Positions 3,462 through 24,131 of a stretch of DNA of 25,401 bases are shown in pieces. Source of the DNA: a virus. Its lineage: Duplodnaviria; Heunggongvirae; Uroviricota; Caudoviricetes. Made by a program: the position numbers and the translations under genes. The notes under the pieces are model-generated. The model saw only the letters and a list, made by a program, of their open reading frames with translations, had not been told where the DNA came from and searched no databases. How positions within the stretch are numbered: the first letter of the stretch is position 1; each line of letters begins with the position of its first letter. The stretch is taken from positions 1-25,401 of the IMG/VR virus record IMGVR_UViG_2802429217_000002; one strand, 5' to 3'.

Positions 3462-4111
3462 GCCGCCATCTCCCTGACCAGTTTTTCCGCCTGCTGGCGA
3501 ACCTGCGCCAGAAACGCCTCACCACATGCCTCAAGTTCATCGCGCCCGATGTAGCTGATTGCCGGTCCCTTCCAGGTCTTGTCAAAAACAGCAATAGCAC
3601 CAGCGAAAAAAGCTCCTGTCGGTACCTGCTTCTCGTCTTTCGGGATAAACCAGACAGGCAGTTCAAAACCAATACGCCCGCGAATAAAAGCAATATGATC
3701 TGCATCTTCCGGCCACCACACTTCGCTGGTGGCAGCTTTGATCAGGAAAACATAGCGCCCGCCCTTATCACGCATGGCACTGGCATGTTTCATGATGTAA
3801 CGCATGCCGGTGATGTATTGCCCCTCATGCTGACTGGCGCGGCTGTATGGGGGATTACCAAAGGCAGCACCTTTAAGCTCCGCAAGACGTTCTGACCAGT
3901 CATGCGCCAGCGCGTTGTCTTCCGCCGTGTAATACGCGGCACATTTGGCGTTATCACCGTCAGTGAACAGATCCAGAACAAACGGGCCAAACAGGGTGTT
4001 AATTCCCCAGAAAATGTTGTCCGGCGTGCGCCACTGATCGCCCACTTCCTTCAGTTCATGGGCTGGTTTGTTCCGCAGTTCCACCAGCGCCTGGCAATAT
4101 TTATTACTCAT
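3458..4111 (-). CDS. Phage-type DNA N6-adenine methyltransferase (Dam-like, NPPY motif)
   Basis: ORF contains GNPPYS catalytic motif; ATG at 4111 overlaps upstream stop by 1 nt (TAATG), indicating translational coupling. Confidence 0.75.
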   Translation of the reverse strand: MSNKYCQALVELRNKPAHELKEVGDQWRTPDNIFWGINTLFGPFVLDLFTDGDNAKCAAYYTAEDNALAHDWSERLAELKGAAFGNPPYSRASQHEGQYITGMRYIMKHASAMRDKGGRYVFLIKAATSEVWWPEDADHIAFIRGRIGFELPVWFIPKDEKQVPTGAFFAGAIAVFDKTWKGPAISYIGRDELEACGEAFLAQVRQQAEKLVREMAA

Positions 4112-4599
4112 TAAGCCCCCACGTAATTCCCTGACAGATACCACTCTTCACCCGATGCAGCGCGCTTGCTGCTTTTCCGTAAGCACCGCTCACGACGCGT
4201 CAGAAAATTGTTTCGTTCTGGCTGGGAGTGGCTTTCACGGAATGCCGCCATCCACACGGTTGCAGCACGACGGTATAAGCCCCTGGACTCCAGTTCTTCC
4301 GCCTGGCGGGTCAGGCACAAAATCACACGGGGATCGTTAGTGCCGACATAGAAATTGCGCACAGGTCTGGTTTCACGAACTGGTTGTGGTTCCGGTTCCT
4401 GCGCTCTCTCAGTCAGGCGCGGGAAATGTCTGCGTGTATCTCCTTCACAACGGTGAGCCACACGCCCACTCTGACGTAACTTGCTTGCTGACTGCAGAAC
4501 GCGCTGCCGTGAGTAACCGGCAAAAGCATCCGCAATATCTCCGGAAGTACAGCCCGGATGGGCTTCAATGAATTTCTGAACGTCATTCAAAAGACTCAT
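4111..4599 (-). CDS. PerC/ANR-family-like regulator domain protein
   Basis: C-terminal segment ESRGLYRRAATVWMAAF...ERNNFLTRRERC resembles PerC/ANR signature; first ATG at 4599 (MSLLND...) with GGGGTGAG SD. Confidence 0.45.
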   Translation of the reverse strand: MSLLNDVQKFIEAHPGCTSGDIADAFAGYSRQRVLQSASKLRQSGRVAHRCEGDTRRHFPRLTERAQEPEPQPVRETRPVRNFYVGTNDPRVILCLTRQAEELESRGLYRRAATVWMAAFRESHSQPERNNFLTRRERCLRKSSKRAASGEEWYLSGNYVGA

Positions 4600-4601: not shown

Positions 4602-5543
4602 TCACCCCCTGAATCCTGCCGGGATCTGGCTGTAGTCCACGTTGTCGTAACTGGCTTTGAAGTACGGGTCTTCGCGTTTTTCGGTGTACGTGCTGACGGA
4701 CGGCGATAAGCGCAGGGAAAGCTCATCCCATTTTTCCCGCAGCTTCGACGGGCTGAGCACGTTACGGCACCAGAACGGATCGCGACTGACGCGGCTGTAC
4801 ATCTCGCAGATTTGTTTATGAGTACGACCATCCTGCACACACATCAGGCGAATTTCGTTTGCCCAGGCTGTCCAGTTCGGTTCTTTGGGACGAACCACCT
4901 CGCCGTCACATTCGGCGGCCTGCTCGTACAGGGCGATGATTTTTTTCCAGAGCCACTGTGCGCAGGTCAAATCATCCTGCGTTCCCCACTGGCGCTTTTT
5001 AGGGCTGAATACAACCGCATCAGGATGGCGAGTTAAAAACTCCTGTTCAGCCGTCTGCGTGTCCGGTTGCGAAGCGTCCGGACGAGAAGTTTTTTTATCT
5101 GACGGATCATGTTTTGATTTTACTGACGGATCCCCGCCAGATTCTGACGGGTGAAAACCCGCTTTTTTGCCAGATTTCGACGCATCAAATTTTGACGGGT
5201 CAGATTTTGATGCGTCAGATTTTGACGGGTCAGAATCTGACAGTTGAGAAAATGCCGCTGCCTGAAGCTTCGCAACGTTAAGCTGATAAACATTCGACGC
5301 ATTGCGGTTACCCTGGCGACGCGCCTTACGCGTTAACCAACCTTCTGCTTCCAGCCGTGCGATAGCCGTTCTGACGGTACTCATTCCCGCGCCAATCTGG
5401 CGGGCAATGGTTTCAATTGATGGCCAGCACACACCTTCGTCATTACTGAAATCAGCCAGGCGGGCCATAATTGCCACGCTGGATAATTTCATGCCTGATG
5501 CAGCGCAACCATCCCATACATAGCCGGTTAATTTAGTGCTCAT
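4602..5543 (-). CDS. Phage replication initiation protein (N-terminal HTH, repeat-rich linker containing iterons, C-terminal replisome-organizer-like domain)
   Basis: 313-aa ORF; N-terminal HTH-like segment SIETIARQIGAGMSTVRTAIARLEAEGWL; internal peptide repeats DPSKSDASKSDPSKFDASKS encoded by 15-bp DNA iterons; AGAGG RBS. Confidence 0.7.
   Translation of the reverse strand: MSTKLTGYVWDGCAASGMKLSSVAIMARLADFSNDEGVCWPSIETIARQIGAGMSTVRTAIARLEAEGWLTRKARRQGNRNASNVYQLNVAKLQAAAFSQLSDSDPSKSDASKSDPSKFDASKSGKKAGFHPSESGGDPSVKSKHDPSDKKTSRPDASQPDTQTAEQEFLTRHPDAVVFSPKKRQWGTQDDLTCAQWLWKKIIALYEQAAECDGEVVRPKEPNWTAWANEIRLMCVQDGRTHKQICEMYSRVSRDPFWCRNVLSPSKLREKWDELSLRLSPSVSTYTEKREDPYFKASYDNVDYSQIPAGFRG
5097..5248. 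repeat. Iteron array (about 8 copies of 15-bp unit CAGATTTTGACGGGT), candidate prophage replication origin inside the initiator gene
   Basis: Five perfectly phased 15-bp units at 5171-5245 plus three degenerate copies upstream; same arrangement as ori-lambda inside gene O. Confidence 0.6.
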
Positions 5544-5552
5544 GACCGACCT

Positions 5553-5891
5553 CTATTTCCCTGAATTTACGACGAAACTGTTCGAGCGGGCTGAAGCACT
5601 CATGCTCATAGCCTTCGCGGAGGTAGATAACACGTTGTGTTTCCGGCTCCCAACGAATGACTCTGACGGGCACTCCGTAGTGATCTTTGAACCAGCGGTT
5701 AACTTGTCGCAAAGGACTGTCTCCTTCTGCCGGTTGAAATCACCCACAGCCCACTCTGCAAAGCTGTGGGTTACAATTTCCCTGTCACCTGGTACATTCA
5801 CTGCATAGCAATATTCCACCTTCGCTTTTCCACCCGGTACAGGAAGCGCAATCAGTTGCGAGCGACGGTAGTGTGTTGTTAAACTGTTCAT
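5553..5891 (-). CDS. Hypothetical prophage protein
   Basis: 112-aa ORF; ATGA overlap with upstream CII-like gene stop and 10-nt gap to rep gene support operon membership. Confidence 0.5.
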
Positions 5892-6457
5892 GCGTTAGTT
5901 TCTCCACAACCAGAAGCAATCGACGCCACGACGCCCGGAGCTGCACACTCGCGGGCGTCATTACTTTCTGAAATGCAAAAAATTTTGTAGACAAGTGCTG
6001 CATGCTCCTGCAGCTTCGAAATTGAGAGATACAGCTCGTCGTTAATTGCTGTCTTCTCATGCGGTTCCACTACACCGTCTTCGATTGCTGAACGAATCTG
6101 TTTTGAATAACTGCCGATCTGTTCAATGACTTCCAGCAGACGCTGGTTAATATCGGCGTTGTCCACATCCTCGACGTCAGGAAGAGACACAAAGACGCCA
6201 TTTGCAGACTGCGCCACAGCATCAGCAATGAAGTGAGTGCCACCAGCACGCTGTAAAACCATTGCCCATCCCAGCGGGAAAATCTGATCGCCATCTGCAC
6301 GAAGGCGGTTGAATAAAGCGTTTTCTGTTACATCGAGCCAGTCAGCCGCTTCAGCGTAACCACCCGGCAACGCCGCGATAGTTTTTCTGACAGCTTTCAC
6401 GTACCACTCAGGCTGTTTTTCTATTTTCCAGTGATGCTTACCCACGATTAGCCTCAT
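5888..6457 (-). CDS. CII-like regulatory protein (phage 186 CII / CP76-type)
   Basis: 189-aa ORF; segment [40 protein letters not shown] resembles the HTH region of 186 CII-type regulators; position immediately downstream of cro. Confidence 0.5.
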
Positions 6458-6488
6458 CGTTCTGTGGTTAAAAATTGAAAGTGTTCTG

Positions 6489-6689
6489 CTAATCTTTCGG
6501 ATAGATATCCGGTCTTAAGTCAGATTTCGTAATTGCACCTGACGTGCATTGCTCAAGTTTTTTAGCCAGCACAAAACTGGCTTTTTTATAGCCATTGAAA
6601 ACCAGCCGTAAGTAGCCAGGTGTTGAGCCAACTTTTCCGGCCAACTCGCCCTGCTGTTCTTTGGTTAAAGAGTCCCAATACGCTTTCAT
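6489..6689 (-). CDS. Cro-like HTH regulator
   Basis: 66-aa ORF from internal ATG at 6689 (MKAYWDSLTKEQQGELAGKVGSTPGYLRLVFNGYKK...) with GGAGG RBS; the longer track ORF 6489-6992 would run through the operator region. Confidence 0.6.
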   Translation of the reverse strand: MKAYWDSLTKEQQGELAGKVGSTPGYLRLVFNGYKKASFVLAKKLEQCTSGAITKSDLRPDIYPKD

Positions 6690-6779
6690 ACAATATGTAC
6701 CTCCGGTGTACATATTACATGATTGAAATGAACCTTCAAGATACTTGTACCTTAACGGTACAAGGGTTTTAATTTCGTT
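6690..6779. promoter_or_regulatory. Divergent cro/cI promoter-operator region with TGTACC-type inverted repeats
   Basis: Inverted repeats ATGTAC-N7-GTACAT (6695-6713) and CTTGTACC-ttaac-GGTACAAG (6744-6764); minus-strand promoter candidate -35 TTGAAG / 16 nt / -10 TAATAT (6714-6739). Confidence 0.55.
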
Positions 6780-7454
6780 ATGAAAACAATCCATGACATC
6801 CGGCGGTCTAACGCCAGAAAACTGAGAGATGGTGTTGGCGGGAATTCTTCCTTTGCCACTATGATTGATCGCGAGCCAACCCAGACCAGCAGGTTTATGG
6901 GAGATGGTGCTACTAAAAATATCGGTGACAGCATGGCACGACACATCGAAAAATGTTTCGACCTGCCTGTCGGATGGCTCGATCAAGAACACCAGACAAC
7001 GAACATCACAAAAAAACCTGATGTTTCAATCACTAATAAACAAATCACATTAGTCCCTGTCATATCATGGGTACAGGCCGGAGCATGGAAAGAAGTTGGA
7101 TATTCTGAGGTTGATTTGAGCACAGCAGAAACGTATCCCTGCCCTGTACCCTGTGGGGAAATGACTTATATCTTGCGGGTGATAGGTGATTCAATGATTG
7201 ATGAGTACCGCCCGGGAGACATGATTTTTGTCGATCCTGAAGTACCTGCCTGCCACGGTGACGACGTTATTGCATTGATGCACGATACAGGTGAAACCAC
7301 CTTCAAAAGGTTGATAGAAGATGGGACACAGCGTTATCTCAAAGCGTTAAACCCAAACTGGCCTGAGCCTTACATTAAGATCAACGGTAATTGCTCTATA
7401 ATTGGTACAGTGATTTTCTCAGGAAAACCAAGAAGATACAAAATCAAAGCCTAA
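6780..7454 (+). CDS. Prophage repressor, cI-like, with C-terminal S24 (LexA-like) peptidase domain
   Basis: 224-aa ORF; C-terminal region ...RVIGDSMIDEYRPGDMIFVD...KINGN... typical of S24 autocleaving repressors; divergent from cro. Confidence 0.8.
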   Translation: MKTIHDIRRSNARKLRDGVGGNSSFATMIDREPTQTSRFMGDGATKNIGDSMARHIEKCFDLPVGWLDQEHQTTNITKKPDVSITNKQITLVPVISWVQAGAWKEVGYSEVDLSTAETYPCPVPCGEMTYILRVIGDSMIDEYRPGDMIFVDPEVPACHGDDVIALMHDTGETTFKRLIEDGTQRYLKALNPNWPEPYIKINGNCSIIGTVIFSGKPRRYKIKA

Positions 7455-7465
7455 TCAATGTTTAT

Positions 7466-7490
7466 GAACCTGCTTCGGCAGGTTTTTTTA
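7466..7490 (+). terminator. Rho-independent terminator after cI
   Basis: Hairpin gaacctgc-ttcg-gcaggtt followed by TTTTTTT. Confidence 0.6.
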
Positions 7491-7493
7491 TAC

Positions 7494-7526
7494 TTGACAA
7501 TGTACCTTTGAGATACATAATGTACC
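7494..7526 (+). promoter_or_regulatory. PL-like promoter with operator half-sites
   Basis: -35 TTGACA (7494-7499), 16-nt spacer, -10 CATAAT (7516-7521); TGTACC motif at 7501-7506 and 7521-7526 matches the cro/cI operator motif. Confidence 0.55.
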
Positions 7527-7626
7527 CAAGAGAAACAACGAACAGGCAGGACGCCCACGAAGTAGCCGCCTGGGGCATATGAAGTCCAGGATGATTCGTT
7601 GAGTCATGTTGTGCCACTAGGCACTC

Positions 7627-7923
7627 ATGTTAAAGCAGGTGTATGAAATGAAAGTCCAGATTTTAAACAATAACTGTGAAGTCGTTTGGTCATACGACAT
7701 AGCCGCCCCTGTAGATCAGAGCGGCGATAGCTGGACCAATGGGAAACATCAGATTATGGCTGGAGTTGTGTTCTCTTTACGCCGTGCTTTGGAACAGGCT
7801 GAAGTATTTCCATCAGACCCTGAATGGAAATGGCCTTTTTCTATTTGTCCAAATTCGGAGAGCACATTTCAGAAAATTGGTCAGAAAGTCGCACTCGAAG
7901 AGCATCAGCCAACTGTTTCCTGA
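7627..7923 (+). CDS. Hypothetical protein, first gene of PL-like operon
   Basis: 98-aa ORF downstream of PL-like promoter; no recognisable motif; competing small minus-strand ORFs overlap its 3' end. Confidence 0.35.
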   Translation: MLKQVYEMKVQILNNNCEVVWSYDIAAPVDQSGDSWTNGKHQIMAGVVFSLRRALEQAEVFPSDPEWKWPFSICPNSESTFQKIGQKVALEEHQPTVS

Positions 7924-9758: not shown

Positions 9759-9965
9759 ATGCTGAACCTCGATTGTGTTCCAATCTCAACTTATTGCAAA
9801 GAAACTGGCGAAACTCCTGAAGCAATAAACAAACGTGTACAGCGCGGTGTTTGGCGTGAAGGTGTTCAGGTTTTAAAGGTTGAAGGCGTTAAGGAGAGGT
9901 GGATTGATCTTAGTGAGGTTGCAAAATGGGCCAGACAAAACTGCTCAAACTACCGCGCGGCGTAA
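9759..9965 (+). CDS. xis: Excisionase (Xis-like)
   Basis: ATG at 9759 with GGAGAA RBS (track ORF begins at a GTG at 9747); small basic protein overlapping the int start, the classic xis-int arrangement. Confidence 0.6.
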   Translation: MLNLDCVPISTYCKETGETPEAINKRVQRGVWREGVQVLKVEGVKERWIDLSEVAKWARQNCSNYRAA

Positions 9966-11092
9966 CAATCAGGAAACACCGCCAGGGCGAAACGATCAAT
10001 ATAACTTTCACCTACAAAGGAGTTAAATGTCGTGAGCCTCTTTCCAATCTGGAAGTAACACCAAAGAACATAAAATACGCCGAGCGCACACTCGGCGAAA
10101 TTCATAATAAGATCGAAAGGGGAACATTCATTTATGCGGAATATTTTCCCCGTTCTGCTCGTTTGAAAATTTTTGGTAATGCTGCTGCAGGCAAAACGGT
10201 AAAAATGTACCTGGACGAATACCTTGAAATCTGCGAAACGAGAAAACTTTCACCCTCTACGATTGGTGGTTATAAAAAATGCCGTAGTGCGTTAGCCTCA
10301 CTCCACATTTGCCCTGCAAGTGAATTAACACCAGCAATCCTGAAAGCGTGGATTCAAAGCCAGAAAACGACCTTAAAAACAATTCGCAACCAGTTATCTT
10401 TCCTGCGGTCAGCACTTGATGAAGCCGTAACCGATGGGGTACTTCAAATTAACCCCGTATCGTTGGTAACTGCTTCGCGCTACCAAAGTGATAAGTCAGA
10501 AGCAGAAAGCAGCTACGTGGTTGATCCGCTATCACCAGCAGAAGTTGATGCATTACTAGCAGCAGCCGGAAACAAACAATGGGAAAATCTGTTCCGGTTC
10601 GCTATACATACAGGCCTGCGTAGTTCTGAATTATGTGCCCTTCGATGGCGTGATATCGACTTTGTTGGAAAAACTGCCCATGTCCAGAGCGCAAGTGTTG
10701 TCGGTGTTATCAAAGGGACAAAGACAAAAGCAGGTACTCGGAAAGTTGAACTGACAGAAGAGGCAATGTTGGCGCTGATAAATCAGAAGCCATTTACATT
10801 CATGAAGGATGCTACTGTCTTTGAAGATCCAAAGACCAATAAGCCTTGGGCAAGTGCTGATGCAATTAGGAAAAAAGCATGGGTGCCAACATTGCGAAAA
10901 GCAGGTATTCGTTACAGAAACCCATATCAAACCAGGCATACATTCGCCACCAGCCATATCAGCCGAGGAGCAAACCTGTTTTGGCTTGCAGCTCAAATGG
11001 GGCATAAAGGGCCTGAGATGCTTTTCAGGCACTATGGCTCATATCTGAAGGAATATGATGGACAAACAAGCTTGAAGAAGATAACAATATAA
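9926..11092 (+). CDS. int: Tyrosine-type site-specific integrase (lambdoid Int with N-terminal arm-binding region)
   Basis: 388-aa ORF; catalytic-domain signatures RFAIHTGLRSSELCALRWRDID, HQTRHTFATSHISRGANLFWLAAQMGHKGPEMLFRHYGSY (R...HxxR...Y). Confidence 0.85.
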   Translation: MGQTKLLKLPRGVTIRKHRQGETINITFTYKGVKCREPLSNLEVTPKNIKYAERTLGEIHNKIERGTFIYAEYFPRSARLKIFGNAAAGKTVKMYLDEYLEICETRKLSPSTIGGYKKCRSALASLHICPASELTPAILKAWIQSQKTTLKTIRNQLSFLRSALDEAVTDGVLQINPVSLVTASRYQSDKSEAESSYVVDPLSPAEVDALLAAAGNKQWENLFRFAIHTGLRSSELCALRWRDIDFVGKTAHVQSASVVGVIKGTKTKAGTRKVELTEEAMLALINQKPFTFMKDATVFEDPKTNKPWASADAIRKKAWVPTLRKAGIRYRNPYQTRHTFATSHISRGANLFWLAAQMGHKGPEMLFRHYGSYLKEYDGQTSLKKITI

Positions 11093-11109
11093 TCCAAGCA
11101 TGAAACTAT

Positions 11110-11132
11110 TGGCCACAATTTGTGGCCATTTT
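11110..11132 (+). terminator. Rho-independent terminator after int (perfect 9-bp palindrome TGGCCACAA-t-TTGTGGCCA followed by TTTT)
   Basis: Palindrome at 11110-11128 followed by T-run 11129-11132. Confidence 0.5.
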
Positions 11133-11150
11133 ACGGAGCAAGATAGAAAC

Positions 11151-12884
11151 ATGGCAAATCAAATTACCAAACTAAAAAATATAAATGTTGTGAAGTTTCG
11201 CGGACTGAAAAATATAAACATCGAGTTTGGTTCTCGCCTAACTGTTATTTGTGGTAAAAATGGCACATCTAAATCCACAATTCTTGGCATTATCGCCCAA
11301 ATATTTAGCTTTACAAAGGACTTTACCAAAAACCCTGAGACTGATTTAACACAATATAAAACATTAACAAATGGCAGCTTCAAGTCAGCTTTCAGCGAAC
11401 ATTTTAGGCTTTCAGAACAATTTGATGTTCCTGGTTCAATGGACGTCAAAATTAGTGTCTATGATGGTGCATCGAACAAACATCTTGAAAAACTAACATT
11501 AGGTTTATACAGCTACAGTGACAGAGATAAATCAAGGCCTGTAGTCAGGGGAAATGATTCAATACCGGAAAAAAACCAAAGTAGAAACGTTACTCATCCT
11601 GTTATTTTTTTAAGCTTAGCACGACTTCTTCCTATTACATTAAGGACTGATTACTCAACACGGGATGTTCAGTACATCAATGAAAATTCTGATGAAATCA
11701 GAATGATGAGTAACCAACTCTTACTAAAAAACAATGGAAGCTCAGTAACAGCAACAAAAGGTACTATCGATTCAATGGTTGTCCATGGTGACAATTATGA
11801 TCACCAATCAGTATCTGTTGGTGAAGATAATGTTGGACAATTAATCCAAGCAATTTTTTCATTTAAAAGATTGAAGGAAACTTATTCTGATTATCATGGC
11901 GGAATATTGTTAATTGATGAAGCCGATGCAGGTCTTTTCCCTGCTGCACAGTTAGAGCTAATTAATATTCTAACTAAAGCAGCAAAACAATACGATCTGC
12001 AAATAATCATGACCTCGCACTCTCCATTAATAATAGAGGATATCTATAATCGTTCAAAACAAGATAGTGATAGCTTTAAAACAATATATCTTACAGACAC
12101 ATATGGAGATATTAAAACAAAGAATAATCTTTCATGGACAGATATCCACGCTGATTTACATGTTGAAACTGTAAAAATTAATGATGACATTTGTCTTCCA
12201 AAGGCAAATGTATATTTTGAAGACAAAGAAGGTTTCGACTTTTTCAAACAATTGATAACAGATCGAAAAATAAATAAAATATTAAATCCATTAGGGAATA
12301 TAAATATTAGCTGCTCTGCCATGCTTGACTTAATGGCAAGAAAAATACCAGAATTTACAGCTAAAAGCTTGATCGTCTTAGACGGTGATGTTGTTCACGA
12401 CAATAGTGCTAATGCAAAAAAAGCCAAAAAAGAAAAAAACTTATGTTTGCTTCCAAGCACCTTACCTCCAGACCAAATGATTTTTGAGTTTTTATATAAT
12501 TTACCACCTGATGATGCATATTGGGAAAATAAAAATAAATTTACAAAAGCTGTTTTTATGAAAACAGCTAAAGACATAATTGCAACGCTAAAAATTGGTA
12601 ACGCTCCGATTGATTTAAAAATCCTTATAGATAATTATAAAAAAGTTAACAAAAACCATGGCGGGATAGTTAGAAAACTGTTTAAAGATTTTGCACATAC
12701 GACTCAATTTCAGGCCCAAGTAAAAGGGCGAGTTAAAGATAACCCATATCGATATTGGGTCGAGAAAAATCCTGTGCAATCGGATAGCTTCAAGAATGAA
12801 CTAATAAAGAGTCTTAAAGTTATTATGACAAGTGGACATGGTGTCGATTCTGCTACCATCTCATCATATCTGTCAGATAACTAA
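11151..12884 (+). CDS. OLD-family nuclease: N-terminal ABC-type ATPase plus C-terminal Toprim domain
   Basis: Walker A GKNGTSKST, Walker B ILLIDEADAGLFP, H-loop TSHSP; C-terminal Toprim-like Glu (VYFEDKEGFDFF) and DxD (IVLDGDVVHD), paralleling P2 Old motifs; ATG at 11151 assumed so that the int terminator is non-coding (track ORF starts 11100); AT-rich. Confidence 0.75.
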   Translation: MANQITKLKNINVVKFRGLKNINIEFGSRLTVICGKNGTSKSTILGIIAQIFSFTKDFTKNPETDLTQYKTLTNGSFKSAFSEHFRLSEQFDVPGSMDVKISVYDGASNKHLEKLTLGLYSYSDRDKSRPVVRGNDSIPEKNQSRNVTHPVIFLSLARLLPITLRTDYSTRDVQYINENSDEIRMMSNQLLLKNNGSSVTATKGTIDSMVVHGDNYDHQSVSVGEDNVGQLIQAIFSFKRLKETYSDYHGGILLIDEADAGLFPAAQLELINILTKAAKQYDLQIIMTSHSPLIIEDIYNRSKQDSDSFKTIYLTDTYGDIKTKNNLSWTDIHADLHVETVKINDDICLPKANVYFEDKEGFDFFKQLITDRKINKILNPLGNINISCSAMLDLMARKIPEFTAKSLIVLDGDVVHDNSANAKKAKKEKNLCLLPSTLPPDQMIFEFLYNLPPDDAYWENKNKFTKAVFMKTAKDIIATLKIGNAPIDLKILIDNYKKVNKNHGGIVRKLFKDFAHTTQFQAQVKGRVKDNPYRYWVEKNPVQSDSFKNELIKSLKVIMTSGHGVDSATISSYLSDN

Positions 12885-12892
12885 TTGATTAA

Positions 12893-12929
12893 AAAGGGCT
12901 TTATGTGATGGCCACAAAGCCCTTTTTTT
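12893..12929 (+). terminator. Rho-independent terminator after OLD-family gene
   Basis: Stem gggcttt/aaagccc with 13-nt loop, followed by TTTTTTT. Confidence 0.65.
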
Positions 12930-12963
12930 GATATACTTTAGATCTGACATTTAGAGGTATCAT

Positions 12964-13863
12964 ATGCGTTTTAACACCCCACTTCGCTATCCTGGCGGTA
13001 AAGGCAAGCTTGCAAATTTCATGCTTCGGCTTATTGAAGAAAATAATCTTTCGCCTATACATTATGCCGAACCATATGCTGGGGGTGCTGGTTTAGCATT
13101 GAAACTGTTACATCTAAATGCAGCTGAAAAAATCATCCTTAATGATATTAATATTTCTGTTTATGCTTTTTGGCACAGTGTATTAAATCATGCAGATCAA
13201 TTATGTTCTTTAATTGAAAGAACTGAAGTTACAATGGATGAATGGTTTAGGCAGAAAGATATAATTAATAATCCTAAAGACCATGATCTTTTAACAATTG
13301 GTTTCTCAACCTTTTTTCTCAATAGAACAAATCGTTCTGGAATATTAAAAGGTGGAGTAATTGGCGGTAAAAATCAAGAAGGGAAATGGAAGCTTGACGC
13401 TCGCTATAATAAGAGTGATTTGATTTCTCGAATCCATAAAATATCAGAAAATCGTCACAGAATAGATTTATATAACATGGATGCAATTGATTTCATTAAA
13501 AAAATAGTTATTCAATTGCCACAAAACTCATTAACATATTTGGATCCACCTTATTACATAAAAGGTAAAGGTTTATATATCAACCATTATAATCATGATG
13601 ATCATGTTAGGGTTGCAAAAGTCGTACAGAATAATATTAAAACACCTTGGATTGTTTCTTACGATAACACTCCTGAGATCCAAGCTATGTATAAGACATC
13701 ATCATTAGTATATGGAATAAACTACAGTGCTCAAGATCGGTACAAAGGATCTGAGGTAATGTTCTTCAGTGAACGATTGAAAATCTTTAAAACAGATGAT
13801 CCAACTAAGGTAAAAGCGCCTGTATTTAAAAGAGGATGTGTTGACGACCACATCCAGACATAA
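12964..13863 (+). CDS. D12-class N6-adenine DNA methyltransferase (Dam family)
   Basis: Motifs LRYPGGKGK (Dam LKWAGGK), EPYAGGAGLAL (AdoMet binding), ILNDINISVYAFW, FFLNRTNRSG, LDPPYY (catalytic DPPY); AGAGG RBS; AT-rich. Confidence 0.85.
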   Translation: MRFNTPLRYPGGKGKLANFMLRLIEENNLSPIHYAEPYAGGAGLALKLLHLNAAEKIILNDINISVYAFWHSVLNHADQLCSLIERTEVTMDEWFRQKDIINNPKDHDLLTIGFSTFFLNRTNRSGILKGGVIGGKNQEGKWKLDARYNKSDLISRIHKISENRHRIDLYNMDAIDFIKKIVIQLPQNSLTYLDPPYYIKGKGLYINHYNHDDHVRVAKVVQNNIKTPWIVSYDNTPEIQAMYKTSSLVYGINYSAQDRYKGSEVMFFSERLKIFKTDDPTKVKAPVFKRGCVDDHIQT

Positions 13864-13935
13864 AAGGAGCCGCAAAAGATCCGCAGAATAAAATGGTTAG
13901 TATTAATCGTTTTATTTCAGCTAATTATAAAAATA

Positions 13936-13968
13936 CGGACTCGGGTTCAACTCCCGCCAGCTCCACCA
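13936..13968 (+). other. ssrA: Attachment-site core: copy of the 3'-terminal 33 nt of the tmRNA gene ssrA (cGGACtCGGGTTCAACTCCCGCCAGCTCCACCA); the rest of ssrA is absent here
   Basis: Near-identity to the known 3' end of E. coli tmRNA; upstream sequence is unrelated to tmRNA. Confidence 0.8.
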
Positions 13969-14002
13969 AATCATGATCCGGATACGTCCGGTGAAGCACA
14001 GA

Positions 14003-14036
14003 AAGCCCGCACGGCACAAGCCCTGCGGGCTTTTTT
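14003..14036 (+). terminator. Rho-independent terminator (ssrA-type trailer terminator)
   Basis: Stem gcccgca/tgcgggc with 12-nt loop followed by TTTTTT. Confidence 0.7.
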
Positions 14037-14151: not shown

Positions 14152-15342
14152 ATGGCGCGTATCACACGCCCCCTCACTAACAATGAAATCCTTAAAGCCA
14201 AACCCCGTGAAAAAGACTTCACCCTTCATGATGGTGATGGCTTGTTCTTGCTCGTCAAAACCACTGGTAAAAAACTCTGGCGCTTCCGTTATCAACGACC
14301 GGGAAGCAGCAGCCGCACAAATTTGAGTCTCGGCTCATATCCTGCCCTTACACTCGCAGCAGCTCGTCAGATACGCGACCAGCACTTAACCACGCTTGCG
14401 CAAGGTATGGATCCGCAGCAGCAACAAGAGCAGGCATCAGAACAACGTCAGATTGAGTTGGATAGTATTTTCTCAACTGTGGCCGCCAACTGGTTCAAAA
14501 TGAAGAGCAAAAGTGTCACTGAAGACTACGCTAAAGATATTTGGCGCTCTTTGGATAAGGATGTGTTCCCTGCAATAGGCGCGATTCCTGTTCAGGAGAT
14601 TAAGGCCAGAACTATAGTTGAAGCGTTGGAACCAATCAAAGCACGAGGTGCATTAGAAACTGTTCGTCGCTTGGTCCAGCGCATTAACGAAATAATGATT
14701 TACGCAGTTAACACAGGCCTGATTGATGCTAATCCGGCATCGGGTGTCGGAATGGCATTTGAGAAACCGAAAAAGCAAAACATGCCGACACTTCGACCAG
14801 AAGAATTGCCAAAGCTCATGCGCTCTTTGGTGATGTCGAATCTCTCAGTTTCGACCCGCTGTCTAATTGAATGGCAACTCCTGACGCTCGTGCGTCCATC
14901 TGAGGCTTCTGGCGCTCGGTGGGTAGAGATCGATCTTGATGCCAGGCTCTGGACAATTCCAGCAGAGCGGATGAAAGCAAATCGAGAGCATATCGTTCCT
15001 TTATCAACCCAGGCGTTAGAAATTTTGGAAGTAATGAAGCCTATTAGTGCTCATCGTGAACATGTCTTCCCCAGTAGAAATGATCCCAAACAGCCAATGA
15101 ATAGCCAGACGGCGAACGCTGCCTTAAAGCGGATTGGTTATGGTGGAAAGTTGGTTGCACATGGTTTACGTTCAATTGCGAGTACAGCTATGAACGAGGC
15201 GGGATTCAATGCTGACGTCATTGAGTCTGCTCTAGCACACTCTGATAGAAATGAAGTTAGAAGAGCTTATAATCGTTCTACATATCTAGATAAAAAAATA
15301 ATACTATTTAACTGGTGGGGTGCACAGGTCTATAAGAAGTAA
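14152..15342 (+). CDS. int: P4-type tyrosine integrase (CP4-57 IntA-like)
   Basis: 396-aa ORF; N-terminus MARITRPLTNNEILKAKPREKDFTLHDGDGLFLLV typical of P4-family integrases; located about 180 nt downstream of the ssrA 3' end as intA is in E. coli K-12. Confidence 0.85.
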   Translation: MARITRPLTNNEILKAKPREKDFTLHDGDGLFLLVKTTGKKLWRFRYQRPGSSSRTNLSLGSYPALTLAAARQIRDQHLTTLAQGMDPQQQQEQASEQRQIELDSIFSTVAANWFKMKSKSVTEDYAKDIWRSLDKDVFPAIGAIPVQEIKARTIVEALEPIKARGALETVRRLVQRINEIMIYAVNTGLIDANPASGVGMAFEKPKKQNMPTLRPEELPKLMRSLVMSNLSVSTRCLIEWQLLTLVRPSEASGARWVEIDLDARLWTIPAERMKANREHIVPLSTQALEILEVMKPISAHREHVFPSRNDPKQPMNSQTANAALKRIGYGGKLVAHGLRSIASTAMNEAGFNADVIESALAHSDRNEVRRAYNRSTYLDKKIILFNWWGAQVYKK

Positions 15343-15346
15343 ATAG

Positions 15347-15366
15347 AGCCTGCTGAAATGCAGGCT
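15347..15366. terminator. Hairpin between convergent int and hotspot gene (possible bidirectional terminator)
   Basis: Stem agcctgc/gcaggct with 6-nt loop; weak T-runs on both sides. Confidence 0.4.
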
Positions 15367-15374
15367 CCACTTCT

Positions 15375-18011
15375 TTATTCAGTAAATATTACATCATCAA
15401 TATTAAAAGACACTTTAAAATTAGGGTAGAGTTTCAATATTACCTTTTCGAAAATCTCATCATCATCATTTAAATTTCTTGCTCTTGAATAAAGACGGTA
15501 ATTATCTTTTGTTATTTGTTTAATTTCGATATGACAAGCATCATTACTATCAAAGCCTCTAAAGAAGGTAAAACTATCCAAACTTACAGCATAAATATTA
15601 TTCAAGGCATTTTCGTCCTCAAAGAAGTAAGTTAACTTATAATCCTTATAAACTTCATAATTATAGTTCTTAACTGAATTTTTATTCACAAATAATATAT
15701 AATTACTCTTCTCTATATCAGCATCATTAAATTTTAAAAAACGCCCTCCTGCTTTGACACAATTGAATAATTGCTGCTTATATATAGATATGATTCCATC
15801 GCCATATAGCCCAGCACTTGATAAATATGAAACATCATCAACCACGCCTAAAAACTCACGTTTTGATGGATAAAAAATTAGTTCACTTGTTTTATGGCAT
15901 ATAGGAAGCTTGGATAAATCAACATTTAATGTACTAACAAGCCATTTATTTAAATGTAAATTCACATCTATTTTAAAGCGTAATACAATGTTCTTATCCA
16001 TTGTCGATTTTATAACTTTTCTCGTAACTTCTTTGCTCTTATACTCCAACATCATATCAAATTTATCTTTAATTAAATCCACTTCCCTTTTCACTTCATT
16101 ATTATCATACCCCATAGATGTTACCATTATATCTAATTCAGGAGACTCACACGCTTTAATTAGCAGGTGATAGTCGTTAGAACTAAATCCCACCACATCG
16201 ACTAATTTACGCCAGTCGTACAAGTATCTCAGGTTAAACCCTCTACGTTTTACAGCCAAAACCAATAATATAAAGACTAATGCTCTTATTGCATAGTGAT
16301 ATTCTGTAACAGTATAGGCCTCACCTTCCGGGAGATTTCTAATTCGTTGTTCATCTATACTTGCACGAATTCTTTCTTCATAAGAACCAAATAACATTCC
16401 ATATAACTCAATTTCATCTGTATAATTAGAAAAGATAGCAAGATCGCTCCACAATTTGCTAGCATTAATTATCGCATCGATCTCCACGTCACTTTTATTG
16501 TCAGTTTGAATTGCGCTCCAACGCATCTGAAGAACAGTTAAAACAAACCGCTGAATTTTAAATATAACAGAAATAATTTCGCTAGCATTTCTTTTTTCTA
16601 AATTCAAATACTTGACACTAAGATGCTTAGTTCCTGCATTAAAGTAATCCCCCCAAAACATTATCGCACTGTAATCTAACTCATTGCATGCAGATTCAAT
16701 CAACCCTTTAATGACTTCATAATAGTCTGCGTTATCATCGTGATAACTCAAATAACTATTCAAGGTATCTTCATGATTTTTGATAAAAGCATTAAAGTCA
16801 TCTCTATTTAAAGAGAGTTTTGCTATCTGTATTATAAATTCTAACGCGGCAGTTTTCTTTCTAAGATTAACATTCAACTCAGAAAAATTATTCATTAACT
16901 CATCAATAGAATTTTTTTTCACATCCGAATTATTTAAATATTGATATGACAGTCCAAAAGCTATATCAAAAGGATATGCTGAAACATCCCCATTAACTAA
17001 GCATGAAAAAACATTAATAGCATTTCTTATTGACTCTCTGTTATTTTCCAAAAGAGCACTATACAGATAGATGACAACCCCATTAATTAATTCATCATAA
17101 TGATTAATCACTTTAAATTCATTATCTGTTATTAACACACCAACAATCAAAGAAGAAACTTTCTTTGATGATTTTTTATCCAAAATTTTTTTAGCCGTAT
17201 AATTAACTTCTATAGTTTTGCTTCCACTACTATGCAGGTTAATATTTGGCACAATAATTTCATATTCATCCAATAAACCTTTTATCTTCATTCCATTTAA
17301 AAAATTGTTTAGTTTATGGAATTTCTCTAAATCTATGTCAACAGTCAAAACATTATCACCCCCATATATCCCTATGCTATATGGTTGTTGCTTTTGCATT
17401 TTCATTTTGCCATAAGAATAATATCCATTTGGTAAATCTCTAACTAGATTTAAAATCTTATCATGTAATTCAGAGTTAGCATCCTCTAACAAGGTATAAC
17501 CCTTGACAAGACTTGAGCAGTGAGATTGTAAATACTCAACAGCGAAGTTCTTATTACGTGACATGTTAAATAATTTCAAGTATGTTTTAAAATACTTCAA
17601 AAGAAAATACATTGATAGTAATTGTGACACCACATACTGAGCAATACCACCACCAAAAACAAAAAAGAAGAATGAAATTATCAAGGTTGATATTGCATCA
17701 ATACCAAACTGCACAAGGTTGATTTCATCCAGTATCTTTTTCCTAATATAACTTTCCAACGCATGAGGTGAGGATTTATTAACAGCATCAACAGTCACAC
17801 TCATAAAAGTTAATGACAACGCACTGATTGTACCGTGTATACCTAAGGAGACCCCCCAAGCACTAAATATCCAATCAAACCCCAATTTTTTTAAATCACT
17901 AGAATTAGAAAACAACCACCACCACTCATTTTTACAAAAAAAAACAAGAATACATAAAGTAAAAAAAATAAAAAAACCAGAGATATAACAAAACAATCTT
18001 TTACCCATCAT
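15375..18011 (-). CDS. Uncharacterised 878-aa protein with N-terminal transmembrane segments; hotspot cargo, candidate anti-phage defense protein
   Basis: Uninterrupted ORF; AAGGA RBS; N-terminal hydrophobic stretches (FCYISGFFIFFTLCILVFF, WIFSAWGVSLGIHGTISALSLTFM, AISTLIISFFFFVFGGGIAQYVV); very AT-rich versus the GC-rich P4 core genes; lies between int and cos where P4 carries gop/beta/cII. Confidence 0.7.
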   Translation of the reverse strand: MMGKRLFCYISGFFIFFTLCILVFFCKNEWWWLFSNSSDLKKLGFDWIFSAWGVSLGIHGTISALSLTFMSVTVDAVNKSSPHALESYIRKKILDEINLVQFGIDAISTLIISFFFFVFGGGIAQYVVSQLLSMYFLLKYFKTYLKLFNMSRNKNFAVEYLQSHCSSLVKGYTLLEDANSELHDKILNLVRDLPNGYYSYGKMKMQKQQPYSIGIYGGDNVLTVDIDLEKFHKLNNFLNGMKIKGLLDEYEIIVPNINLHSSGSKTIEVNYTAKKILDKKSSKKVSSLIVGVLITDNEFKVINHYDELINGVVIYLYSALLENNRESIRNAINVFSCLVNGDVSAYPFDIAFGLSYQYLNNSDVKKNSIDELMNNFSELNVNLRKKTAALEFIIQIAKLSLNRDDFNAFIKNHEDTLNSYLSYHDDNADYYEVIKGLIESACNELDYSAIMFWGDYFNAGTKHLSVKYLNLEKRNASEIISVIFKIQRFVLTVLQMRWSAIQTDNKSDVEIDAIINASKLWSDLAIFSNYTDEIELYGMLFGSYEERIRASIDEQRIRNLPEGEAYTVTEYHYAIRALVFILLVLAVKRRGFNLRYLYDWRKLVDVVGFSSNDYHLLIKACESPELDIMVTSMGYDNNEVKREVDLIKDKFDMMLEYKSKEVTRKVIKSTMDKNIVLRFKIDVNLHLNKWLVSTLNVDLSKLPICHKTSELIFYPSKREFLGVVDDVSYLSSAGLYGDGIISIYKQQLFNCVKAGGRFLKFNDADIEKSNYILFVNKNSVKNYNYEVYKDYKLTYFFEDENALNNIYAVSLDSFTFFRGFDSNDACHIEIKQITKDNYRLYSRARNLNDDDEIFEKVILKLYPNFKVSFNIDDVIFTE

Positions 18012-18119
18012 TCGTCCTTATGTTTTTTGGGTATTGTAAACCAAAGATAAAACCCTCTATGGTTTTGCATGCCCTGTATATTGATTTGTGTAAATTAGCT
18101 CATTACCAATTAGCGCGCA

Positions 18120-18138
18120 ATGCTCTCCCCGCCACGCC
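18120..18138. other. cos-like site (reverse complement GGCGTGGCGGGGAGAGCAT, 16/19 match to the P2/P4 cohesive end GGCGAGGCGGGGAAAGCAC as I recall it)
   Basis: Read from the sequence; located next to psu as in P4. Confidence 0.5.
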
Positions 18139-18236
18139 TGCCCGCTTAAGAGGTCACTTTTAATGCAGGTGCATGACCCGACTCAGGCCGCGCCGGTACT
18201 GGTGTTGCGTGGGATAAAAAATACGAGGATTTGCAT

Positions 18237-18272
18237 GCAAAACCATGCACCTTATGGATGCATGGCTTTTTT
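18237..18272. terminator. Bidirectional rho-independent terminator downstream of psu
   Basis: Stem ccatgca/tgcatgg, 9-nt loop, flanked by AAAA and TTTTTT. Confidence 0.55.
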
Positions 18273-18312
18273 CAGAAAAAATAGCGGAATTTTCGGGTTT
18301 TTTTTTTGCGTG

Positions 18313-18879
18313 CTACCGTGCGGCCAGTTCTGCACGTCGGCGGGTGTAAATCAGGTTCTGTGCCGGGGTGAATTTCTGGCGATTATCATCCCGCGAGGCC
18401 GCATCAGGCCTGAATCCGATAGCCGTTAAAATGTCGCTGTCCTGCGCGGAATAATTAATTTTTTCACCTGCGGCCAGCCACACCGACAGGGCTTCACGCA
18501 GATAATCAACCGAGTGCTGCATGGCGCTCTGTTTTACTGCGGGAATTTGTTCGTGATATCCCATCAGCTCAGGCGCCAGCGTGGCGGCCAGATCCGCGCC
18601 GTGCTGCTGCATAAAGTCATGGAGCCGGTTGCGGATGCTGATGTGCTGCACTTCCTCATGTGAGCGGATATAGCGACCGGCAGCCTGATTAATCACCCAT
18701 TTTTTCACGTCGATATTGTCGCGCAAATCCTGCATTCTGCGCGGGATTTGTTCGTCACCAGCAAGGAGCTGTTCACGGTATTCAAGCTCAAGGTCAGCCA
18801 GTTCGGCTTTACGTTTCAGCCAAGTGTTTTTGTTCGTCTGACAGGCCTCAAAGGCCTGCTGCAATGTCACAGTGGTCAC
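18313..18879 (-). CDS. psu: Polarity suppression protein Psu
   Basis: 188-aa ORF; MTTVTLQQAFEAC..., YIRSHEEVQHISIRNRLHDFMQQHG, KINYSAQDSDILTAIGFRPD closely parallel P4 Psu as I recall it. Confidence 0.85.
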   Translation of the reverse strand: MTTVTLQQAFEACQTNKNTWLKRKAELADLELEYREQLLAGDEQIPRRMQDLRDNIDVKKWVINQAAGRYIRSHEEVQHISIRNRLHDFMQQHGADLAATLAPELMGYHEQIPAVKQSAMQHSVDYLREALSVWLAAGEKINYSAQDSDILTAIGFRPDAASRDDNRQKFTPAQNLIYTRRRAELAAR

Positions 18880-18894
18880 GTGTCTCTCTCCTGA

Positions 18895-19134
18895 TTAATG
18901 CCGGAACGGCGAGCTGTAGCAGCCCTGTACTTTACGCGGCGGCGGTGGCGTCACCGGTGCGGGGTCGGTTTTTTCCGGTGCGGCACGTATCACACCGTCA
19001 ACCGACTCGATGGTGCGGAAAGTGGCCGAGCATTCGATATTGGTACACTGGTGATAACGTTGTTTGACGTTTTCCGACAGATAACGGCTGGTACGGACGT
19101 GCGCGGTCTTTTTGCAGAACGGACAGTGAAACAT
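18895..19134 (-). CDS. delta: Ogr/Delta-family zinc-finger late transcription activator
   Basis: 79-aa ORF MFHCPFCKKTAHVRTSRYLSENVKQRYHQCTNIECSATF matches the P2 Ogr CxxC...CxxC motif. Confidence 0.85.
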   Translation of the reverse strand: MFHCPFCKKTAHVRTSRYLSENVKQRYHQCTNIECSATFRTIESVDGVIRAAPEKTDPAPVTPPPPRKVQGCYSSPFRH

Positions 19135-19137
19135 AAT

Positions 19138-19881
19138 TCAGCCCTCTGCCTGTTCGTGGTCTTTTGCGGCCAGTTCAGCGGCAAGCTTCATCCGTCTGGC
19201 GGGGCTTCTTAACAGCGCCATATCAACCCCGGTTATGACCGGGCGATTCATGCCCGTTACGGACAGAACCGGTTCCTGCTCCATATCGAAATGATACAGG
19301 GCTGACTGTAGATTCAGGGCATCGCCCAGCTCGCGGGTCACGGTCGCACGCGGCGAGGTTTCTCCGCTCATTTCCAGCGACCGTATACGCAACAGGAAGG
19401 CACGTAACAGTGCAGGGCTGATACCGGCCAGCACTTTCTTCCATTCGCTGTTGGCGTAAGTGGTGAATGCTTTTTCGTGGGCGCTGATATAAGCCGTACC
19501 GGAGGAGCATGCGCCAAGCATGGCGAGGCCTTTGTCTTTCTCCAGCTCGGTAATCAGACCGGTGAACTCATCAGCCAGTTCTCGGCTGGCGATACGTTTA
19601 CTGTGTTCAGCTTTCAGTTCAGGAGTGAGGTTGCCGCGCAGGGTTCGAAAGCGGCTGCGCCAGTCCTGTTCGGCCTGTGCGCTTTCACTGAGGGCAGTCT
19701 GTCGTTCCTGCTCACAACGCTGAATGGAAGCCTCAATGTCGCTGAGTTTACCCATGCTGGCCGTGTGTGCGTCTTTTGCTTCGTTAAGTGCGGCCAGCGC
19801 ACCGGCAATACGTTGTTCCGCGCCTTCATCCTGTTTACTGATAACGGTCTGCATGGCTTTGATAATGAGTTCGGGTTTCAT
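19138..19881 (-). CDS. sid: Capsid size determination protein Sid (P4-like)
   Basis: Position upstream of delta and psu in one operon; coiled-coil-like Ala/Glu-rich sequence; ATG at 19881 with GGAGAG RBS preferred over 19947 because the late-promoter activator site sits at 19954-19971. Confidence 0.7.
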   Translation of the reverse strand: MKPELIIKAMQTVISKQDEGAEQRIAGALAALNEAKDAHTASMGKLSDIEASIQRCEQERQTALSESAQAEQDWRSRFRTLRGNLTPELKAEHSKRIASRELADEFTGLITELEKDKGLAMLGACSSGTAYISAHEKAFTTYANSEWKKVLAGISPALLRAFLLRIRSLEMSGETSPRATVTRELGDALNLQSALYHFDMEQEPVLSVTGMNRPVITGVDMALLRSPARRMKLAAELAAKDHEQAEG

Positions 19882-19904
19882 GTTCAGGCTCTCCGTGTGT
19901 TCAA

Positions 19905-19971
19905 CCTGAAATGATTCTGACGCCTCCTGCACAACAACACGATTCATTGCCGTTGTCAGAGTGCTGGCACA
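19905..19971 (-). promoter_or_regulatory. P4 Psid-type late promoter with Ogr/Delta binding site TGT-N12-ACA
   Basis: TGT(19954-19956)-N12-ACA(19969-19971) dyad; its centre lies about 56 nt upstream of the predicted start, with a -10-like CAGAAT. Confidence 0.6.
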
Positions 19972-20050
19972 AACAGACCTTAAAATCAGGCTGGCCAGAG
20001 AAGGGTCGCAGGAAAACCTTACTCACCGTTTGTTTTTTTGCTTATAACTA

Positions 20051-20170
20051 TTCACCACTGTTCACCCTAAATAAAAAGATAAGCGATACAGTAAGTTAAA
20101 GGGTGAATAGTTGAGGGTCTGACTGTTCACCGTCTGTTCACCACTGTTCACCCTTCACTTTGTGAAGCCA
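20051..20170. repeat. Cluster of TGTTCACC octamers (P4 alpha-protein type I iteron motif), candidate ori
   Basis: TGTTCACC at 20124, 20135, 20145 plus variants at 20051-20067 and GGTGAATAG at 20101. Confidence 0.55.
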
Positions 20171-20244
20171 GTCAACCTATTAGATTTTTTAGCGATTAAA
20201 AAAACAGAAGTATATAAACAAAAGTAATCAGCAATGGGCCACCG

Positions 20245-20283
20245 GTTTGCCAACGTTTGCCAAAAAACGGCCAACGTTTGCCA
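20245..20283. repeat. Three copies of GTTTGCCA (two as GCCAACGTTTGCCA) upstream of alpA; candidate regulator-binding repeats
   Basis: Copies at 20245-20252, 20255-20262, 20276-20283, followed by TATAAA. Confidence 0.35.
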
Positions 20284-20422
20284 CTGTATAAAAATCGCTC
20301 TGTTGTGTGGTGGAGTACTACAAAATGACTTGTTGCCCTGAGGGAAAATATTCACAAAATAGAGAGCTACCCGAAGCCGGACGGACACGACCGGCACTGT
20401 ATGGACTTTGTGAGGTAGCCCG

Positions 20423-20689
20423 ATGCACACCGCTTTTTCTTCCCCGTCTTCTACCCCTGCCGCGCCGCTGATGCCGGTTTCTGATACCGTTCACGAACGC
20501 TTTATCCGTCTGCCCGAAGTGATGCATCTGTGCGGCCTGTCCCGCTCGACCATTTACGACCTCATCAGCCGGGAAGCCTTCCCGAAACAAATCTCCCTCG
20601 GCGGGAAAAATGTGGCGTGGGCGCAGTCTGAAATCACTGCATGGATGGCGGATCGCATTGCCGAACGTAACCGGGGCTATGACGCATGA
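20423..20689 (+). CDS. alpA: AlpA-family phage regulatory protein / excisionase
   Basis: [55 protein letters not shown] matches the AlpA/Vis HTH family; GAGG RBS. Confidence 0.7.
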
Positions 20690-21027
20690 TGATGACCGTT
20701 CAGCAAACAGCCCCTTTTTCTGGCTTGCTTCTTTTCGCCGTTTCCAGGTATAGTTTTCCCGCTGTCGCAAAATCGGCAGCCGGGCGTAGGAACCCGTGTT
20801 TAACTATGGCGACACCGGACGCGCCTTGCGTCTTTTTTTGTGTCTGTGCCTTGATGCACCCATTCAATACACAGTGGCCTTTTCGCCATTGTGGGTATCG
20901 CGTAATGGTGGCTCAGGCGGGGCAGCCTTCGGGCTGGCCGGTTCTCATAGTTACCGGTATTCCTACCCCCGTCTGGGCTACCACCCATGAGCGTAGGAAC
21001 TCCGATGGTAGCTGTAACCAGCTAACT

Positions 21028-21237
21028 ATGGAGGTTGCCCTTATGGCTATGACCCTCACCCCGTCACACCCGCAGTTTGTCTTTGTGTTTGCCGCCGTTC
21101 GTCGCGCAGACCGTAAACCCCGTATTTGCATGCTGCGCACCGTTGCCGGTGACGAGCACGCCGCACGCCTTTCCCTCGTTCGCGATTACATCCTCTCGTT
21201 CGCTGGCCGTTTGCCGGTTCTGGAGGTGCGCGCATGA
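21028..21237 (+). CDS. Small hypothetical protein of the P4-like early operon (tentative)
   Basis: Internal ATG of track ORF 20686-21237; upstream part of that ORF looks non-coding (repeats and hairpins). Confidence 0.3.
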
Positions 21238-24123: not shown

Positions 24124-24131
24124 CCTCACTC

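Follow-up and report, generated by a model that had tools for sequence, protein, structure and literature searches.

The ATPase-methylase pair at the int-att end of the prophage

The stretch of DNA analysed here, called the window throughout, spans 25,401 nucleotides (positions 1 to 25,401 of IMG/VR virus record IMGVR_UViG_2802429217_000002) and contains the right end of a temperate prophage with yfdN-R-type early genes, a CI/Cro region and a Q antiterminator. Two co-oriented open reading frames (ORFs), 11100-12884 (594 amino acids, aa) and 12964-13863 (299 aa), lie between the integrase gene (int) and an ssrA-derived attachment (att) core and encode an ABC-type ATPase and a D12-class adenine methyltransferase, which together make up the module under study. 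The GC content is 0.30-0.36 over 11001-14000, 0.42-0.50 in the adjoining prophage and 0.50-0.57 farther left. An earlier interpretation made from the letters of the DNA (the sequence-only reading) had described the pair as AT-rich cargo between int and att, and its ORFs, the drop in GC and the flanking integrase and att core were all confirmed. The carrier is a temperate phage of the phiNP-like kind, whose int-att end holds the pair as a 'moron'. The namesake phiNP is a Citrobacter phage with a 25-bp ssrA attachment core (PMC6456863), and Rfam returned a partial match to the 3' end of tmRNA at 13866-13968. The features of the module and its surroundings are as follows.

11151..12884, + strand: gene 1, ABC-type ATPase (AAA_15/AAA_21) with a C-terminal Toprim-like domain, predicted nuclease/effector, 577 aa
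12964..13863, + strand: gene 2, D12-class N6-adenine DNA methyltransferase of the PD-Lambda-5_B family, 299 aa, with DPPY at residues 194-197 and the S-adenosylmethionine (SAM) motif EPYAGGAG
12885..12963, + strand: intergenic spacer with a hairpin, a T-run, a promoter-like site and a ribosome-binding site (GAGG) 5' of the methylase ATG
~12892-12930, + strand: hairpin AAAGGGCTT...AAGCCCTTT followed by T7, in the spacer
12909-12937, + strand: weak promoter-like match TGGCCA-17-TATACT (-35/-10), in the spacer
11109..11130, + strand: perfect 9-10 bp inverted repeat TTGGCCACAA-T-TTGTGGCCA, just 3' of the int stop and 5' of the ATPase start
9926..11092, + strand: tyrosine integrase of the phiNP-like prophage (Pfam Arm-DNA-bind_2, Phage_integrase), upstream of the module
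13944..13968, + strand: att core GGTTCAACTCCCGCCAGCTCCACCA, equal to the 25-bp ssrA 3' end and the attP of phage phiNP, downstream of the module
14018-14032: ssrA terminator remnant, 3' of the att core

The ORF of gene 1 is open from 11100, and the start at 11151, which gives the 577-aa protein, is favoured by RefSeq and by most homologues. The protein matches the Pfam families AAA_15 (3.8e-15) and AAA_21 (4.1e-12) and belongs to phrog_3940 of PHROGs (1.7e-200), a group annotated with 'unknown function'. Its best PADLOC match is PtuA (3.7e-20), with ATPase-Toprim_I-B also among the matches and PtuA, AriA, GajA and HEC-04 ranging from 1e-14 to 1e-20. The 54 homologues show little or no variation at Walker A (G35-T39, K41, S42), in the signature region (S220-N227), at Walker B (D256/E257) and at H290, and the residues E357/D358 ('VYFED') and D411/D413 ('LDGD') of the C-terminal domain are invariant. 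In the AlphaFold model this domain (pLDDT 93.6) forms a four-stranded parallel alpha/beta core in which strand 1 ends with E357/D358 and strand 3 with D411-x-D413, the signature geometry of Toprim. A Foldseek search with the full-length model (pLDDT 88.7) returned TsOLD (1e-11) and GajA (3.7e-11) as the best PDB matches over ~600 aligned columns, followed at lower rank by PtuA, SMC and Rad50 heads.

The profile searches gave a different picture of the same domain. No Toprim was matched by Pfam or PADLOC profiles in the C-terminal 226 aa, by Pfam in ten remote relatives taken from an exhaustive profile search, or by a PDB profile search with the C-terminal alignment, and a Pfam scan of all 54 family members gave no match to OLD-like_TOPRIM, Toprim or DUF4435. 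Alignment of the full-length and C-terminal profiles with P2 Old by hhalign covered the Walker B region alone, a Foldseek search with the C-terminal domain model on its own returned nothing significant, and a homology search from the P2 Old C-terminus, made for an OLD Toprim profile, yielded 3 fragments only. The C-terminal domain of the ATPase family itself falls into 203 clusters at 50% identity (E<=1e-10). As the sequence profiles are negative and the structure is positive, we call these C-terminal 240 residues Toprim-like, and the predicted fold makes them probably a divergent OLD-type nuclease domain. The sequence-only reading had credited gene 1 with all the hallmarks of the OLD family; the ABC ATPase motifs, the invariant Glu and DxD and the Toprim-like topology support an OLD-like protein, a narrower claim than full OLD membership.

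Gene 2 matches Pfam MethyltransfD12 (PF02086; 2.2e-19) and, with its DPPY, is the D12 adenine methylase that it had been taken for. In PADLOC it matches PD-Lambda-5_B (PDLC04018; E=5.1e-124, residues 1-282) and MTase_II (3.7e-107). Homologues share its EPYAGGAG and DPPY motifs with little or no variation, and the methylase stays conserved beside unrelated partner proteins, its putative DNA-recognition segment included. PD-lambda-5 (Vassallo et al. 2022) is a validated broad-range Escherichia coli defence system of the compact 'RM+Abi' kind which was selected experimentally from ECOR7 (RCQ13837.1 and RCQ13838.1), whose genes are given as 'ParB/HEPN, methyltransferase' and whose cloning required a delta-mrr host (PMC9519451). 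The prophage also carries a second, unrelated adenine methylase in its replication/early region (3458-4144, - strand; Pfam PF05869 'Dam', 1.1e-45).

Linkage, co-inheritance and spacing of the two genes

The neighbourhood of the ATPase was surveyed with one genome per species at 61 loci, 59 of them evaluable, from Gamma- and Betaproteobacteria, Bacteroidota, Mycobacterium, Listeria and Geobacter. The methylase accompanies the ATPase in 57 of the 59 and lies directly downstream on the same strand in 53, and four loci (L007, L010, L022 and L056) have three genes, namely the ATPase, the methylase and PD-Lambda-5_A, the ParB/HEPN gene. Even a P2-like Vibrio phage with 30% ATPase identity, ValB1MD-2, keeps the two genes together. 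The pairwise ATPase distances correlate with those of the methylase (r=0.93, Mantel 0/2000, n=46), so the pair is inherited as one unit. The recurrent co-occurrence of the ATPase homologue with a D12 methylase, for which the sequence-only reading had proposed a survey, is thus real at the species level, and chance adjacency of the two genes is excluded by the neighbourhood surveys.

The survey centred on the methylase took the best 80 of 403 viral contigs with relatives, of which 73 were evaluable and 7 had the methylase at the contig edge. The partner was the ABC-ATPase only in 49 contigs, the ParB/HEPN protein (PD-Lambda-5_A) only in 19 and both in 5, and no evaluable contig had the methylase with neither partner. 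The three-gene loci on these contigs (L117 and L139-L142) join the ATPase and PD-Lambda-5_A to one methylase, and three-gene loci suggest that both effectors are able to share one methylase. An orthologue of Dam (GATC) from a phage-borne orphan class, the identity that the sequence-only reading had named as speaking against itself, was rejected for gene 2, which is 18% identical to EcoDam, scores 54 bits against NCBIfam TIGR00571 where the cut-off is 114.85, and belongs to a family that is an orphan in 0 of the 73 viral contigs.

Gene integrity was compared in 88 pairs. Both genes were intact in 82, both were broken in 3 and only the ATPase was broken in 3, while an intact ATPase beside a broken methylase was found in none, an asymmetry that points the right way for a methylase acting as antidote. 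The two of the 59 loci in which the ATPase lacks the methylase belong to Aggregatibacter and Haemophilus, where it is a lone gene among housekeeping genes, and these solo ATPases are the most divergent copies besides the degraded L066. Both are intact at 39-40% identity (L055, Aggregatibacter kilianii, 5818-7671; L058, Haemophilus quentini, 5815-7662), and that of A. kilianii is flanked by fabA and a permease gene.

The spacer between the two genes is 97% conserved among E. coli, Citrobacter and phiNP, whose flanking coding DNA has 80-90% identity, and this conservation fits a regulatory role. The inverted repeat at 11109-11130 may serve to terminate int transcription or as a regulatory hairpin, and in its Citrobacter variant the pairing is preserved via G-U. 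The GGCCAC of this repeat reappears in the loop of the intergenic hairpin (12905-12920), where it overlaps the putative methylase -35. Both the repeat and the GGCCAC hairpin are kept in Citrobacter and phiNP, and the repeated GGCCAC may be a shared regulatory site. As promoter-like matches in the region are not above shuffled expectation (12 found, 13.3 expected), an independent methylase promoter is given little weight. Separate expression of the methylase is plausible in the enterobacterial lineage and is not general to the family, the gap between genes 1 and 2 being ~45 nt (median) in most taxa. The sequence-only reading had placed a terminator and a promoter-like sequence between the genes; the spacer does hold a hairpin with a T-run and a weak promoter match, and both are specific to the enterobacterial version.

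This spacer, which could permit separate transcription, the solo ATPase homologues of the Pasteurellaceae and the precedent of the stand-alone ATPase-Toprim defence proteins P2 Old and HEC-04 (PMC10568477; 10.1101/2024.01.29.577857) might be taken to mean that two independent functions travel together, one being a stand-alone OLD-like or HEC-04-like defence ATPase and the other a phage anti-restriction or epigenetic methylase. We consider this very improbable, because 57 of the 59 evaluable ATPase loci, which come from several phyla, have the methylase, the distances correlate at r=0.93, the linkage extends down to 30% ATPase identity in ValB1MD-2, the median spacing of ~45 nt suggests one operon, and the methylase stands without an ATPase or ParB/HEPN partner in 0 of 73 evaluable viral contigs.

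A proposed restriction-modification-like role

We propose, with a probability of about 0.5, that the pair is a restriction-modification (R-M)-like defence or addiction module with an OLD-like nuclease in place of the PD-lambda-5 effector; the sequence-only reading had already suggested R-M-like logic. The D12 methylase would methylate an adenine motif other than GATC and so mark the DNA of host and prophage, and the ABC-ATPase with its Toprim-like domain would act as an ATP-dependent effector that attacks unmarked DNA. Its targets would be incoming phage, or the host itself after loss of the module, resulting in phage restriction and in addiction to the mobile element. The gene content of the pair, its conserved catalytic motifs, its linkage and co-inheritance and its kinship with PD-lambda-5 are matters of observation. 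We favour the R-M-like reading because these catalytic motifs are invariant, the methylase is never an orphan, the decay asymmetry has the expected direction, a homologous methylase serves in a validated defence system, the two genes are linked and co-inherited, and several unrelated mobile elements carry the module. For the pair itself we infer nuclease activity, methylation sensitivity, an anti-phage phenotype and a physical complex of both proteins.

As the same methylase family pairs with the ParB/HEPN protein, with the ATPase or with both, the methylase would be the part that stays constant and marks self, and it may also recognise the target, while the nuclease partners would be exchangeable. 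The conservation of its putative recognition segment across unrelated partners suggests that the methylase rather than the nuclease may define the target, an arrangement that by analogy would be more like Type III than Type II. A wider claim, put forward tentatively and at somewhat less than an even chance, is that the pair represents an unrecognised, widespread class of ATP-dependent restriction with an OLD-type ABC-ATPase/Toprim restriction subunit, a D12 methylase for self-marking and perhaps for target recognition (cf. Type III Mod), and a nuclease interchangeable or stackable with the PD-lambda-5 ParB/HEPN effector.

The three-gene loci, together with a resemblance to AriB, can also be read as a guard or abortive infection arrangement, in which the ATPase-Toprim protein monitors the methylase (or a ParB/HEPN-methylase complex) and not methylation, like PARIS AriA/AriB or PrrC with EcoprrI, and a suicide nuclease fires once a phage anti-restriction protein, e.g. 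a DNA mimic, disables the methylase. Such an arrangement is unlikely, since the predominant two-gene form has no other nuclease to guard, the invariant DPPY and SAM motifs argue that methylation itself is needed, and an intact ATPase beside a broken methylase was not found in the 88 pairs.

The exact module is present in 87 of 5426 complete E. coli genomes. Its E. coli carriers are unrelated elements, with the phiNP-like prophage at ssrA and divergent pairs in an e14-like prophage at icd and in an integrative and conjugative element (ICE). The functional phage phiNP has the module after int, and in its record OR565852 (L068) the methylase ORF at 4814-5680 is intact, unannotated and 89% identical to the window methylase. 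Pairs with at least 99.3% aa identity occur in Cupriavidus gilardii, in metagenome-assembled genomes (MAGs) of Sphingorhabdus, of Comamonadaceae and of an unclassified member of Proteobacteria, and in Melaminivora (L033, L034, L035, L038 and L043), and near-identical pairs across these genera indicate very recent spread on a broad-host-range element. That the module lies beside int and att at the edge of various mobile elements, that an identical pair has spread across genera and that the genes decay in a toxin/antidote-like pattern would suit a module whose primary role is addiction by post-segregational killing, stabilising a prophage, ICE or island, with anti-phage defence being incidental. 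There is little chance that this is so, as PD-lambda-5, with its homologous methylase, protects strongly and broadly against phage; addiction is moreover mechanistically the same as the R-M-like reading and compatible with defence.

Several points weigh against the R-M-like reading. For classical Type II systems it is unusual that a methylase remains conserved beside nuclease partners unrelated to one another. The two divergent Pasteurellaceae ATPases stand without this methylase, so the ATPase is not always lethal in its absence, and the 3-vs-0 asymmetry in gene integrity is too small for significance. Phage phiNP lysogenises mrr+ E. coli K-12 (PMC6456863), whereas PD-lambda-5 required a delta-mrr host, and methylation level or specificity may therefore differ between both. 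The pair is also known here from sequence and predicted structure, not from experiment.

Two questions about OLD nucleases are stated to be open (PMC10568477), namely how they distinguish foreign DNA from that of the host and whether an OLD protein on its own gives broad defence. The conserved methylase partner offers a testable answer to the problem of self and non-self, namely methylation as the self mark. If true, the wider claim of an unrecognised restriction class would add a methylase-linked OLD class with a concrete rule for telling self from non-self. The pair also places PD-lambda-5 in a larger family centred on the methylase, whose effectors would be swappable. To go by the PADLOC models, present-day defence annotation probably reports such a pair only as an incomplete system or as an orphan methylase, and the module may affect phage therapy, transformation efficiency and the interpretation of methylomes.

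As for the surroundings of the integration site, a P4-like satellite lies in tandem at the ssrA-derived att (14152-25401) and encodes a P4-type integrase, Psu, an Ash protein, C4/isrK RNAs and an alpha primase-helicase. The interval between its int and psu holds one AT-rich ORF of 878 aa (15375-18011, - strand; GC 0.28-0.34) which belongs to no Pfam or PADLOC family, has its sole match in phrog_18005 (unknown function), and is found in just 3 of 5426 complete E. coli genomes, where it is annotated as hypothetical; it is a candidate for an unknown defence gene. In E. coli 042 (L001, 17136-29615) a different island with an integrase, a recombinase, two ParB-like genes and a Type I R-M system follows the ssrA-att, and because the islands differ at the same position the ssrA site is a variable defence hotspot.

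Comparison with OLD, R-M and PD-lambda-5 systems

With the OLD family (P2 Old/TsOLD in Class 1, GajA in Class 2, retron I-B in Class 3 and PARIS in Class 4) and with HEC-04, gene 1 shares the N-terminal OLD-type ABC ATPase and, in its predicted structure, a C-terminal four-stranded domain with Glu and DxD motifs. It differs in its conserved neighbour, which is a methylase and not a UvrD helicase, a reverse transcriptase with a non-coding RNA or a split AriB. The OLD classes are set by their neighbours (none, a UvrD helicase, a retron, the split PARIS pair or an archaeal membrane protein), and neither classes 1-5 nor 11 further uncharacterised OLD clades are described as methylase-linked (PMC10568477, PMC12796447). 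Gabija was rejected, as no GajB UvrD/PcrA-like helicase is adjacent to gene 1, whose neighbours are the integrase and the methylase, the latter conserved in 57 of 59 loci. Retron I-B was rejected, as there is no reverse-transcriptase ORF between int and att and the other Rfam matches in the window are only C4 and isrK. PARIS was rejected, as gene 1 is a single fused polypeptide with no DUF4435 match and the AriA profile covers the ATPase part only.

Type II and Type III R-M systems resemble the module in combining a methylase with a putative nuclease that are co-inherited on mobile elements, with gene decay consistent with a toxin and its antidote. The module differs from them in that the top PADLOC matches of the effector include no known restriction-endonuclease family and that the recognition region of the methylase is conserved across unrelated nuclease partners; a comprehensive 2025 review of R-M systems does not mention Toprim or OLD nucleases. 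PrrC with EcoprrI, like other R-M-linked ABC-ATPase abortive-infection modules, is similar in that its ABC ATPase is joined to a nuclease domain and has a genetic link to a modification enzyme (PMC3710099), and differs in that PrrC carries a HEPN RNase and accompanies a complete Type I system, whereas the window protein has a Toprim-like domain and a lone D12 methylase as partner. No description of an ATPase/Toprim protein paired with a D12 methylase was found in the literature, although an earlier computational mention is possible, and WP_001596855 and WP_023363292 are not listed in the DefensePredictor supplementary files.

The closest relative is PD-lambda-5, with which the module shares the methylase family (PD-Lambda-5_B, E=5e-124). 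The window methylase is 51% identical to that of L005, a 2,460-bp E. coli locus in a P2 hotspot which has the size and gene content of PD-lambda-5 and whose gene A matches PD-Lambda-5_A (E=1.4e-167), and a convergent PD-lambda-5 variant occurs in an O121 lambdoid prophage. Both systems are two-gene prophage cargo and both are presumably methylation-based, and the ATPase and ParB/HEPN partners co-occur with one methylase in nine loci. The difference lies in the partner, as gene A of PD-lambda-5 encodes a ParB/HEPN protein of ~500 aa, whereas in the window its place is taken by a 577-aa ABC ATPase that is unrelated to it and has a Toprim-like domain. The PD-Lambda-5_A model is absent among the 25 best of 116 PADLOC matches of gene 1, while true A proteins score 1e-74 to 1e-167. 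PD-lambda-5 proper was rejected, since the B methylase is present without an adjacent PD-Lambda-5_A ParB/HEPN protein and gene 1 is unrelated to PD-Lambda-5_A, and tools that require both PD-lambda-5 genes would presumably miss the pair. By its gene families the module is a sibling of PD-lambda-5 with a swapped effector. The sequence-only reading had called the pair a system not yet described, which appears to hold for the combination and less so for the methylase, which belongs to PD-Lambda-5_B of the validated PD-lambda-5. The specific ATPase-methylase combination appears undescribed and is widespread; it is not categorically new, as it falls within the PD-lambda-5-type methylation-based prophage defence modules and the OLD-like ATPase-nucleases.

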